Of a stretch of 64,000 bases of DNA, positions 6,215 to 52,574 are shown one piece after another. The number at the start of each line of letters is the position of its first letter. Within the stretch, counting starts at the first letter, position 1. Source of the DNA: Squalus acanthias. Lineage: Eukaryota. The stretch spans positions 19,468,001 through 19,532,000 of the forward strand of contig CM059438.1 in assembly GCA_030390025.1 (NCBI GenBank), given 5' to 3'. The position numbers and the translations under genes are program-made. A model generated the notes under the pieces. That model did not search any database. It worked only from the letters and a program-made list of their open reading frames with translations, and was not told where the DNA came from.

Positions 6215-8135
6215 TTGTATTCAGTGTGGTTGATAATATCCAGTACATGTCTTGAATTTACCGAGTTTCACAAACTGTTGTTTTCTTACTTAATGTTGAG
6301 TTCAGAAACTACTTAATGCTTAGACAAAATAATGAATGTGCTTTTGGAGGTTTTGTCTTTAATGTATTTGATATCCTGTTCCCTCTTGCCTAGTAGAAGG
6401 CTCAGTACCACATATCCTCCGACAGCCAGGAGGACAGGCATATTTTGTTCACCCCACCATCAGTGATGCTCCATAGTCCAGAAGCATTAAGTGCAATTCA
6501 AGTGGGATAAATTGGACATTCTCAGTATTCGCTTTCCTCAGTCGTAAGACACTCCATCTAGCAGCCTTGTTTACAACTCAGGAAGTTCAGGTAAGCAAGT
6601 TCGAGAGAGAGGCAGTGCTTGAACTTGAACTCCTGACCTTCTGGTAAGGAGTCAAGTGCTTTCACTCAAGCTACTGGGCTGTCAGATCCTGATGTGCTTC
6701 TTCATACACAGTTTACTTGTTGATCAATTCTGGTAATTATGGGCCACACTTTTGCTCAACATCTTCCCTGTGTGGTCTACATTTTTAAACCTGGCCACAC
6801 TGCATCATTACTGGAATAATCCTGCAGGGGCAAAAATGAATAGAATGCAAACATAAAAGGATACCCTCTCTACAATTATCTTATGAAGTAAACTTGGCAA
6901 TCCTTTCTAAATTTGCTGAAAATTCGAAGGAACTGTTAAAATAAACATCGCACAGACAATGTTAAAGTTAAGAGCCAATACACGACACAATCCCATAACT
7001 TTGTCTCCAGCTTTCATTTCTTTCAAATTCAGCCTCCAGCAGGCCAGATGGCACCAATGCAATTGCCAGAAAGTCAATACATCTGGCCACATTCCTGAAA
7101 TGACACTTCTGATGGATAGCACTGCTACTCCAGCACAATGCTCCTTTCAAAATTGAACCATTACTAGTCTGCTCAAAGTACTGCCTGATGTGTGAAAACA
7201 AAAAAATGAGCACACTAAATCCGAGAAAAAAAAAGCTGGGGGACATTAAAATATTGGTGCAGTGATATAGAAATGGTGCACCGACCGTAGCTTAGAAGGA
7301 AGAGGAAAAGCATGAAGCACTGACCTTTCAAGGACCTCAGCTGCAGTTGCGCCCTGGAGTTTTTTGGGAGCAGAGTTCATTCCAAAAAAATACTATTAGT
7401 TAAGAAAAAAGCTATTCATTGGAGTTTTTCTATAAGTCTAACTTATAACACACACCAAGAAAGATACACAGTAAAACAGTTACATGAAAAAGAGTTGCTT
7501 TGATTGAAAGCCGAAAGAATTCTTTCAGCTCTAAGCTTATGCAGTTAGCATGAGTCAAAAAACAGGCAGACAGTCAGCTAAAGGGTTCTCTATAGTATAA
7601 ACATTTATTTAAGGCTTAAATTATACTTTAAAGTGGTTGAAATAATTTAGTATACAATGTATAGCTCTCAACATAATTAAACACTATGTGACCACACTTG
7701 TAGCTTTAAAAATGTGTTAAATTCTCTCTTGTCCTTCCCACTTCGCCCCCCATCCCCCGCCGCCCGTCCCCAGAAAGTTTAGAGGGAAGTTATGCTTAAA
7801 GTTCTGACTTCTCAGACTTCCAAGTATAAGACTTCCTAGCTGATTTGTTTTACATAATAATGTTCAATGTAACTACACATTGTAAATCAGGGAGCATCAA
7901 GATAGATTTTTGTCACCGTTCACCAAGTAGCATAACACTAGATATGATACATTTGCTTTTTTTAACAAAAGGGTACATCTTTGTCCAGCAAATGCGAAGC
8001 CCTCTCTTTGAAATGTAGACTTCTTGAAGGCTATATAAAGTGGCCATGATGCGGAGATGCCGGTGTTGGACTGGGGTGGACAAAAGTGAGAAGTCGCACA
8101 ACACCAGGTTATAGTCCAACAGTTTTATTTGAAAT

Positions 8136-8172
8136 CACAAGCTTTCGGAGCTGCTGCCCCTTCGTCAGGTGA
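8136..8172 (-). ncRNA. Minimal hammerhead ribozyme motif (minus arm)
   Basis: Reverse complement reads TCAC-CTGACGA-AGGGGCAGCAGCTCC-GAAAGCTTGTGA. Confidence 0.6.
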
Positions 8173-8252
8173 AGTGAAGGAATACAGATCGGCAAAGCAT
8201 ATATAGACAGAGAACTGTCTATATGTGCTTTGCCGATTCGTATTCCTTCACT

Positions 8253-8289
8253 TGACCTGACGAAGGAGCAGCACTCCGAAAGCTTGTGA
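8253..8289 (+). ncRNA. Minimal hammerhead ribozyme motif (plus arm; weakened stem I)
   Basis: TGAC-CTGACGA-AGGAGCAGCACTCC-GAAAGCTTGTGA. Confidence 0.55.
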
Positions 8290-8773
8290 TTTCAAATAAA
8301 ACTGTTGGACTATAACCTGGTGTTGTGCGACTTCTCACTTATATAAAGTGGAGATGTGTAGCATTGGTAAAATGATAAGTGCCTTCCTATTCTAAAATGA
8401 TTTGCTACTAACCTAGGAGGTATTACCTCTGTTTCCACACTTCCAACACCCAGCTCTCACTGTGACTCCTAAAGGTTCAGGCATTTTCCTTCTGGATCAC
8501 TTTTTATGAAAGGTAAATTTTATTGAGTGCAGATACAGAAATTAACTTCCATTACAATGATAGCAATCTAAAAGCGAACTGATTGCTTCTTCCCCCCAAA
8601 CATCAGCAATTGGTAACAATCCCCACCAAAATCCAATTTGCATCCATCATTGGAATGACCACTTTTCCATTTTTATTGCCAGGCTCAATCTGCAATTTAA
8701 ACTTACTCTTGCAGATTCACAAATTAATTTAGGATTTTGTTACACAGGCTTGTTGTTAAGAAAAACAGTAATA

Positions 8774-16296: not shown

Positions 16297-17059
16297 GGCC
16301 CGAAAATTAGACCTAATACGGGAGAGTACGCACTGTGTACTCTCGCGTATTAGGTCCCGAAGTGCCGGTTTCCTGCATGCACTGCGCATGCGCGGGAAAC
16401 CGGCACTTCGTGTATGGCAAAGGGGACGGTTCCTAAGTGAACCGCGTGTGCACTACAGGCTGTGCGCACGCAGCACACTTAGTTTTTTTTTCAGGTTTGA
16501 ACGCGCAGGTAAGTGTTGAAGATTTTACACATAAAGAAAGCAGGCGTAAGACCCCTTTTTAACAAGGTAAGTAGTTAATTAAGTATTATTTTAAATTTTT
16601 TTCAACAGGTTTATCTTTTTTAGCGACTTTAAAGAAAGGTAAGTTTATTTTTATAACTTTTAAAAAGAATTTAAATTTTTTCAAAAATTTACATTTTTGT
16701 TTAAAGTGGTTAATTTATTTAACTATAGTTATTTTATTAATGTGATGGCTTTTTTTAAATTTAATTGAGGTTTAGCTGTTCTTTTGGGGGCTTGTTGTAT
16801 TCATAGCTTTGACAGCTCTTGCTGTCAAAACTATGAATGAAAGATGGTGTGCTGCCATTGGCTCTAACTGGCCCACGTGATCCCAGAGGTCGCATCGCAC
16901 TAACTGCGCCTCGGGGTACGCACACACTGCGCGCCGGCACCAGGGAGAGGCCCAGGAACTGAAGTTCGTGTGGGCCAAAACCATAAAGGTAGGCGCGGAG
17001 TGCGATATCGCGGGGGATCCTTACCCCCGCGGCAACCATCGAACTCCAATTTCTGGGCC
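16297..17059. mobile_element. PIF/Harbinger-type MITE, family C
   Basis: TIR GGCCCGAAAATT/AATTTCTGGGCC; TSD TTA; subterminal hairpin 16310-16357; AT-rich core. Confidence 0.8.
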
Positions 17060-43912: not shown

Positions 43913-44642
43913 GGCCCGTAATTTCCAATTGGAGGCTTCCTGCATGCGGATGCCTCCTATCGGAAAAAAATCTACGAACTTACCTGAGGACTCCCGAGGT
44001 CCGGACACTTCCGCTCCTGGGCCTCTCCAAAGTCGAAATGCGCAGGGCCTACGTATCCCAGGGACGCATGCAGTTCGCAAGCATCCCTGGGATCACGTGG
44101 GCTAGGCCAGCCAATAGGAGAAGGGAACCCCCCTTCATACTTTTGACAGATAGACCTGTCAAATATATGAATGGAGATCACCCCAAAAAAACACTAAAAC
44201 ATTAAATAAATTTAAAAAAACCCATCATGTTTATAAAATGAGTTAAAATTACATTAAATTAAATATTTTAAGCAAAAATTAAATTTTTTGGAAAAAAATT
44301 AATGTTTTTTAACGGGGCTAAAAATAAACTTACCTTTTTTAAAAGTATTTTTAAATTATAAATGAGTGAAATTTTTTTTTTTTTTTACTAACTCTTATGC
44401 TGGTAAAAGCGTAAGATTGTAAGGGTTTTCAGCGGGCGGAGGTTCTGCAAAAAGCAGAACTCTCCCCGCGCAGAGGCCCTTCTCTAGGGCAGGCGTCCGA
44501 TCTGTCAAGAGCATTCTTAACAGATCGGAAATGCCGGTTTTCAGCGCATGCGCTTCTCGCATGCCCGAAACCTGTATTTCCGATGTCCCTACGGGTGTGT
44601 ACACAGCTCGTACACACCCGTAGGGATCGGAAAATGCGGGCC
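43913..44642. mobile_element. Harbinger-type MITE, family C
   Basis: TIR GGCCCGTAATTTCC/GGAAAATGCGGGCC; closely similar to 20840-21550. Confidence 0.8.
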
Positions 44643-51058: not shown

Positions 51059-52149
51059 AGTTAACATTTTAGTTGATTTTATCCTGTGCACTGCATATCT
51101 TACCATTAGCTTATTTAAACACAAAGGCCCAAAAATTCAGGGTCTTGCCATCTGCTGCTATAAGTCTGGTGAAACAGAACTCCCACCCACGCAACTGACC
51201 CAATGCAGGGGTCTTGGGGAGGGGTCAGAGCCTTAATGTTGTACCAACATGCAGTAATTTCAAACCATGGATCGAAAGGGAAGAGGAAGAGAACCTGAAA
51301 TGTCTCGGAGAGTGACGTAAATATGATTCTGATGAAAAGTAGGCACTTGGGGGGGGGGGGGGGGGGGAAGAGGGGGTAAATATTAGGAGGCTAGAGATCT
51401 GCCAATACAGCAGTTAGGACTATGTGAAAGGAAGTGCAGTGAGTGGCAACTCCCGAAATCTCAGGATCCCTCTCTAATGCTGGATGAGGTTTAATGACCT
51501 CACAAGGGCGGAGTGGTAGTGGGACGGGACTTCCACTCATCATTCCGACAATGCCATAATCCCGACCCATTTTCCAGGGTCGAGATTCTTTTCCTATGCA
51601 GGGCAGGCACCCGAATGGAGCCCACTGCTGCAGGTCAGCACTTGGTACTAGGTGATAACATCCAAAACCTCTACCTGGGCGACAAGAAAGTGAAGATTCT
51701 TCAACTTTGAGTTTTTGATTCATAATTATCAGGAGTATAATAGATTAAAAATTAAGTTAATAATAAAAAAAAACTATCTATCAGCAGAACGAATTCCAGA
51801 ACAAAACTAAAAACATTCTTTTGTATTTTCTCACAATTACATGAAACACGGTAGTAAATTGAAACATCTATTTTTGTTGCCGAACATTATTTGCCAAGTA
51901 CTATTAAAAAACCTAATTATTTGATAAAAACCTTGAGGAGGGGGAAGCAGCTTGATGTTAGAAATGTGGGCAAAGCCAGAGGTCTGTTTAAAAAGATAGG
52001 CAGTGTTTTGGTTGGCATTAGTGAAGGAGGAAAATTTACCACATTGTACGATCATTTCTGAAATATGACTTGGAAGTCTGGTAATGCCTTATGATAACAT
52101 GTGAGAAGTCGCACAACACCAGGTTATAGTCCAACAGCTTTATTTGAAA

Positions 52150-52186
52150 TCACAAGCTTTCGGAGCGCTGCTCCTTTGTCAGGTGA
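52150..52186 (-). ncRNA. Hammerhead motif with G8A-mutated core on the FGFR2 sense strand
   Basis: Mirror arm reads TCAC-CTGACAA-A-GGAGCAGCGCTCC-GAAAGCTTGTGA; differs from the other arm only at 52177. Confidence 0.6.
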
Positions 52187-52188
52187 CT

Positions 52189-52225
52189 TCACCTGACGAA
52201 GGAGCAGCGCTCCGAAAGCTTGTGA
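52189..52225 (+). ncRNA. Minimal type I hammerhead ribozyme motif, intact core, antisense to FGFR2
   Basis: TCAC-CTGACGA-A-GGAGC AGC GCTCC-GAAA-G-CTT-GTGA: stem I TCAC/GTGA, CUGANGA, stem II, GAAA, palindromic AAGCTT helix III, CUU cleavage triplet. Confidence 0.7.
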
Positions 52226-52371
52226 TTTCAAATAAAGCTGTTGGACTATAACCTGGTGTTGTGCGACTTCTCACATTTGTCCACCCCAGTCCAACACCGG
52301 CATCTCCACATTATGATAACATGGTCACTAACTAAGTCAAGTAAAGGTTTTTGAACTCTTTATCTACTTTC

Positions 52372-52574
52372 TGTTACCTGTCTGCGCAGAGGGATGCGTT
52401 TGGTCAGCTTGTGCACCGGTGGCGGAGCATTAAAATCCGGCTTCTTTGCTGTGTTCTTCATTCGGCAAATAATAACCGTCACCACCATACAAGCGATAAC
52501 AAAAACACCAATGCAATAGATAGCTATTTCCAGATAGTCAGGAGAGGTCAACCCTTTTGGTTTGTCTTCAGGAA
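52372..52574 (-). CDS. FGFR2: FGFR2 exon 10 (transmembrane); ends at 52378 (GT donor, -VT) or 52372 (GA donor, +VT)
   Basis: atccag|TTCCTGAAG...AGACAG|GTAACA|GAAAGT; encodes [47 protein letters not shown]...KRIPLRRQ(VT). Confidence 0.95.

Follow-up and report, generated by a model that had tools for sequence, protein, structure and literature searches.

The window analysed here is a 64,000-nt stretch of the Squalus acanthias genome (assembly GCA_030390025.1, contig CM059438.1, positions 19,468,001 to 19,532,000). It carries a gene of the FGFR type on the minus strand, where the frames of a transmembrane exon and of kinase exons are translated. Exons for the Ig domains were found with Pfam in the order I, IIa, IIb, IIIa, IIIb, IIIc, and a signal-peptide exon of 109 nt lies at L140:1640. 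The transmembrane exon is number 10 when IIIb and IIIc are both counted. We take the gene to be FGFR2, and this name and the exon and intron numbers are assumed by analogy with the human gene. Fragments of a DDE_Tnp_4 transposase are present upstream of FGFR2 (L143:9580-9999 and L144:79-663, minus strand). The transmembrane exon ends in tandem donors, a GT and, 6 nt downstream, a putative non-canonical GA, an arrangement described for FGFR1-3 in the excerpted text of PMC4176328. The intron that follows contains a palindrome, and the features in and around it, together with a related one at the other end of the window, are as follows.

52378..52574, minus strand: FGFR2 transmembrane exon (from the translation, with boundaries read from the sequence).
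52370..52377, minus strand: tandem donors of the transmembrane exon, GT at 52377 and GA at 52371 (from the sequence; use of GA is putative).
52311..52323, no strand: putative target-site duplication, right copy, 13 bp (direct repeat).
52277..52310, plus strand: one-sided tail of 34 nt, typical of Penelope-like elements, between the tailed arm and the right flank.
52189..52276, plus strand: tailed arm of the inverted repeat, antisense in the FGFR2 pre-mRNA and made first there (self-comparison of the window).
52189..52225, plus strand: intact minimal hammerhead motif, predicted to cut after 52221.
52150..52186, minus strand: minimal type I hammerhead motif with G8A at 52177 (a CpG transition), predicted to be inactive.
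52099..52186, minus strand: left arm of the inverted repeat, the short (tail-less) arm, a putative ribozyme-bearing end of a Penelope-like element, sense in the FGFR2 pre-mRNA (self-comparison of the window).
52089..52101, no strand: putative target-site duplication, left copy, 13 bp (direct repeat).
8045..8340, no strand: second twin of the same family, about 18 kb past the last FGFR2 coding exon, with CUGACGA in both cores.

Self-comparison of the window gave arms of 88 nt each and a spacer of 2 nt, and the inverted repeat with its 13-bp direct flanks is thus as the first-pass annotation had described it. That annotation placed its start about 60 nt downstream of the donors, which holds for the nearer direct flank, 54 nt below the GT at 52377, but not for the inverted repeat itself, which begins approximately 100 nt below that GT. 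The arms have a single mismatch, T at 52177 opposite G at 52198, and reading both arms bears out the change that had been reported, namely CUGACGA on the plus-strand arm and CUGACAA, with A at position 8, on the minus-strand arm, the strand transcribed as FGFR2 pre-mRNA. The same self-comparison also returned two short, unrelated palindromes, at 16310-16356 (47 bp) and 44577-44633 (57 bp).

Helix II and loop II are not the same in the two arms of the twin at 8045-8340, whose longer spacer is itself palindromic. Intron 2 of FGFR2 contains another twin (L138:6615-6820), which has a 12-bp direct flank, a sense arm cut at the junction and an antisense arm with a U4C core change, so that an intact sense core is present in neither of the two FGFR2-intronic twins. 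The intronic counts leave out one further twin, at L141:5911-6102, which has an intact minus-strand core and is situated 14 kb above the signal-peptide exon.

The plus-strand arm fits a minimal type I hammerhead, with a 4-bp helix I, the CUGACGA core, an extra A between positions 9 and 10.1, a G10.1-C11.1 pair, a 5-bp helix II and GAAA, and with a palindromic GC (positions 15.2-16.2) in place of helix III. Among 20 aligned variants, 96 % of the 180 cells of helices I and II are paired (25-49 % in slid controls). One helix I pair changes from C-G to U-A in 6 of the 20 and one helix II pair from A-U to a G-U wobble in 7 of the 20, though the variants are related to each other and represent few independent covariation events. 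They were chosen by a pattern that requires the core, and the invariance of the core among them is by construction. Position 7 is C, U, G or A across variants of the family. Subfamilies (L001, L017, L060, L172, L240 and others) differ at this position (C, G, A), in the length of loop II and by a compensatory change in helix I, and keep the catalytic positions. An Rfam search gave no hammerhead match up to E = 10, and returned only microRNA hairpin look-alikes below the gathering score. With A at position 8, the FGFR2-sense hammerhead is predicted to be inactive. According to excerpts of the source papers, a G8C change abolishes cleavage by the hammerhead of PAc, a Penelope-like element of the anole, a ribozyme that also needed protein (PMC11167929), and minimal hammerheads showed no cleavage as monomers and little as dimers (PMC4209133).

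In the 3.7-Gb genome there are 53,154 occurrences of a 21-mer from the arm, and in many cases a plus-strand copy comes shortly after a minus-strand one. This and all further genome counts are of exact sequence patterns. Longer copies contain, upstream of the arm and contiguous with it, a reading frame with the order RT, thumb, Cys4 and GIY-YIG, which is absent from the clipped FGFR2 copy. In L028 the open frame is 370 aa and includes the RT motif YIDD, a C-x4-C-x2-C linker and a GIY-YIG-like endonuclease, the last matched by Pfam at E = 6e-4 and 20.4 bits, below the curated cut-off of 22.6. The C-terminal piece in L028 had no Pfam RT match. Close twins, in which an inverted 5'-truncated copy lies beside a pseudo-LTR, number at least 2,077 in the genome. 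After removal of duplicate loci, 90 of the 92 distinct twins had the tail on one arm and not on the other, and a flanking direct repeat of at least 9 bp, mostly 12-13 bp, was found for 39 of 44. Many insertions of the family lie inside sequence that translates as another, LINE-type RT (L012, L015, L021, L022), which we take to be CR1-like. Compared with the left flank and the element, none of the contigs from four public runs crossed the FGFR2 insertion site and no empty-site allele was seen among them; sequencing depth for the family was high in three of the organisms and almost nil in the fourth.

To judge from the reading frame of the longer copies, the one-sided tail and the inverted truncated copy, the FGFR2 palindrome arose when a Penelope-like retrotransposon, probably of the Neptune type, inserted head to head in clipped form. 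This bears out the earlier identification of such an element with minimal hammerheads in both arms. On the basis of the Cys motif, the clade would be Neptune or Nematis; a CX2-5CxxC motif before GIY-YIG is given as the mark of these two clades in part of PMC8557442. Many places in the genome have short twins whose spacer is 2 nt, as would be expected if the palindrome were a self-contained mobile unit of the foldback or MITE-like kind rather than the end of a Penelope-like element. However, the spacers in the twins range from overlap to more than 1,300 nt, the long ones consist of RT and endonuclease sequence contiguous with the arm, and the tail is one-sided. The contiguous reading frame and variable junctions largely refute a foldback or MITE identity, which we consider extremely improbable. 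The palindrome is real yet common: its retrotransposon class is a known one and has left tens of thousands of such footprints, and both its layout and the minimal hammerhead are already in print.

The first-pass annotation suggested that G8A may reflect selective silencing, in that an intact sense hammerhead near the FGFR2 donor would have cut the pre-mRNA and its loss would have been favoured by selection, and offered neutral CpG decay as the other account. Three CpGs in the arm precede an A, namely those of G8, G12 and one non-core site, and their changes to CpA therefore share a trinucleotide context on the deaminated strand. Genome-wide, G8A was found at 2.79 per 100 intact (673/24,131), G12A at 2.66 (1,412/53,154) and the non-core CpG to CpA at 2.95 (2,177/73,844). 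Changes from CpG to TpG were similar, at 2.94 per 100 intact for the non-core site and 2.97 for C11.1U. Relative to the non-core site, G8A has a ratio of 0.95 (95 % interval 0.87-1.03) and G12A one of 0.90 (0.84-0.96). A fourth CpG, in the reading frame, gave 2.09 (CpA) and 2.82 (TpG) per 100 intact, and G8A is 1.34-fold higher than its CpA (1.15-1.55), though the pattern used for this site also counts the position-7-G subfamily, which may be younger. If one fifth of the arms are assumed to be sense-intronic, these figures allow a rise of G8A in such arms of at most 1.17-fold with the non-core control and of up to 3.7-fold with the reading-frame control. G8A thus stands at the rate of the non-core CpG, which supports neutral decay as the account of this change.

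Among the close twins, both cores are intact in 1,632, G8A is paired with an intact partner in 103, which is exactly the FGFR2 arrangement, and G8A is paired with a changed partner in 14. As G8A is thus found on an arm in 5.6 % of close twins (about 1 in 18), the FGFR2 arrangement needs no special cause. Among 43 sampled twins, G8A was on the short arm in 23 and on the tailed arm in 20.

Simple symmetric CpG decay does not fully describe the dinucleotide at positions 7 and 8, since the tolerated change C7U (window position 52197), which keeps the core consensus, was found at 10.4 per 100 intact arms versus approximately 2.9 at the other CpGs, a 3.6-fold excess. Most cases affect one arm (309 close twins with C7U and an intact partner, 19 with C7U on both arms). 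Inheritance from source elements with U7 on both arms was rejected as the origin of the excess, as the 19 both-arm cases compare with 15.7 expected by independence. The ACG context was rejected at the four-base level, as an ACGA site in the reading frame has 334 TpG and 247 CpA (1.35-fold). The excess may reflect a wider sequence context, or pre-insertion variation filtered for ribozyme function, and is the only family-level signal that possibly deserves another look. The length of loop II differs between the arms in 15 of 86 twins, and a downstream marker agrees in 85 of 89.

The orientation check that had been proposed was made on 43 arms in 1.2 Mb inside four large genes, which were marked by same-strand clusters of CUB-domain exons and each taken as a single gene, nested genes being possible. 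Of the 21 sense arms, 11 are intact, 6 changed and 4 truncated, and the 22 antisense arms comprise 12 intact, 7 changed and 3 truncated (intact 11/21 vs 12/22, p = 1.0). Two of the intact sense arms (L172:3660 and L189:1721) have no mirror arm in their 10-kb stretch. G8A was found in 2/21 sense and 0/22 antisense arms (p = 0.23), and G8A or G12A in 4/21 and 2/22 (p = 0.41), small counts that lean towards silencing. Four arms near MTHFR were excluded as the limits of that gene were not established (47 found, 43 counted); with these included, 11/23 sense and 13/24 antisense arms are intact. With so few arms, the four-gene sample could miss an effect that is modest or local.

In a head-to-head twin, the antisense arm is made first and the hammerhead arm second on either strand. 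Since this order also applies in the FGFR2 pre-mRNA, the hammerhead arm is predicted to close into a hairpin. In an equilibrium (not kinetic) model, applied also to shortened transcripts, the hairpin beats the hammerhead fold in the FGFR2-sense transcript by 54.8 kcal/mol as found and by 60.8 kcal/mol with G at position 8. For transcripts ending within the hammerhead arm, the mean predicted probability of pairing with the upstream arm is 0.68-0.94 as found and 0.87-0.97 with G8, and the nascent hammerhead bases reach a mean of at least 0.9 once helix II has been made. The mirror arm is thus predicted to mask the ribozyme whatever base is at position 8. In the predicted hairpin, 52177 and 52198 form an A-C mismatch in an otherwise perfect long duplex. 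An A-C mismatch in a long duplex is a preferred site of editing by ADAR.

Selective silencing of the sense ribozyme would account for a sole arm difference that is G8A on the sense strand, and is consistent with the second FGFR2-intronic twin, which is also without an intact sense core, with the two sense arms and no antisense arm carrying G8A in the four genes, and with a reported depletion of tandem retrozymes in Xenopus introns (bioRxiv 10.64898/2026.07.22.740005, in the part available). However, G8A is at background genome-wide and recurs among close twins generally, more than half of the sense intronic arms are intact, the intron 2 twin has a core change in its antisense arm too, and prediction has the motif locked in the hairpin whichever base stands at position 8. 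If the ribozyme is silent with or without G8, there is little for selection to act on. The proposal is not supported, and we regard it as very unlikely. About equally improbable is a narrower form, in which the host silences retroelement ribozymes only in the few copies that lie beside weak splice sites; here the FGFR2-sense hammerhead, 200 nt from the GA donor, would have folded for a short time, or as a dimer helped by protein, ahead of hairpin closure, and would have cleaved the pre-mRNA until G8A switched it off. As this donor-proximal class is narrow, it would be invisible in genome-wide rates.

The insertion could alternatively affect FGFR2 through the hairpin and not the ribozyme, if a duplex 54-100 nt below the GT and GA donors shifted the choice between them or attracted dsRNA editing. 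In favour of this, the sequence has both donors at a distance of 6 nt, the hairpin is predicted to be very stable with its one A-C mismatch, and use of the GA donor reportedly depends on a pair of intronic sequences farther downstream (PMC4176328, citing Brackenridge 2003, in the excerpted text). Against this, similar twins are found in many introns, and such hairpins are evidently tolerated. An influence on donor choice is possible but unsupported, and we rate this explanation as improbable, if slightly less so than selective silencing.

We therefore favour, with a probability of about 0.9, the following reading. A very abundant Penelope-like retrotransposon inserted short copies of its ribozyme-bearing end head to head, which left the palindrome, and a methylated CpG in it then most likely decayed neutrally to give G8A. 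The endonuclease of the element is likely to have nicked an AT-rich site on both strands, approximately 13 bp apart. From the layout and the excerpted account of PMC11167929, reverse transcription would then have begun at each of the two neighbouring start sites that are known, giving two short transcripts, of which one has the 34-nt tail and the other lacks it, and these would have been joined back to back. G8A would have come later, when a methylated CpG was deaminated. In the FGFR2 pre-mRNA, the hammerhead arm is expected to pair into a hairpin of 86 bp while it is still being transcribed, and the ribozyme would have been silent both before and after G8A.

The outcome is a negative one. From the three CpGs of matched context and the sense and antisense counts, the family shows no sign of a host need to disable intronic minimal hammerheads. 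The head-to-head layout offers a reason, in that the mirror arm comes first on either strand and is predicted to mask the ribozyme. Donor-proximal silencing, if true, would mean that, within a developmental gene, selection had acted on one catalytic base of a ribozyme derived from a transposon.

Among known systems, a non-LTR retrozyme, reported as tandem head-to-tail repeats with a hammerhead in each unit (in part of bioRxiv 10.64898/2026.07.22.740005), was ruled out, as the FGFR2 palindrome is a head-to-head twin and not a tandem. The likeness is to endonuclease-bearing Penelope-like elements (PMC8557442, and Pen2a_Av in PMC3846280), which, in the excerpted descriptions, share head-to-head inverted pseudo-LTRs with an inverted 5'-truncated copy, a tail of 30-40 nt at one end and the CX2-5CxxC motif, and which have a short target-site duplication like the putative one here. 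The FGFR2 copy differs from these in its extreme truncation, with only about 90-120 nt of the end left and a spacer of 2 nt, and the putative target-site duplications here are 12-13 bp versus 8-10 bp in the rotifer examples given there.

The motif itself resembles the minimal hammerheads of metazoan Penelope-like elements (Cervera and de la Pena 2014, PMC4209133) in the extra base between positions 9 and 10.1, the G10.1-C11.1 pair, the palindromic 15.2-16.2 and the short helix I. In contrast to those covered by the available text of that paper, helix II is 5 bp here rather than the 7-8 of Schistosoma, position 17 is U (C in some subfamilies), and the two motifs are a few bases apart, whereas the pairs on opposite strands reported there are 100-700 bp apart. 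PAc, the Poseidon element of Anolis carolinensis (Frangieh et al. 2024, PMC11167929), belongs to a different clade, and its ribozyme is described, in the same excerpts, as overlapping the start codon and as dispensable for insertion in vitro. It has, as we propose for the family described here, two RT start sites by which the tail is defined, a cut in both strands of AT-rich DNA and a hammerhead that depends on G8.
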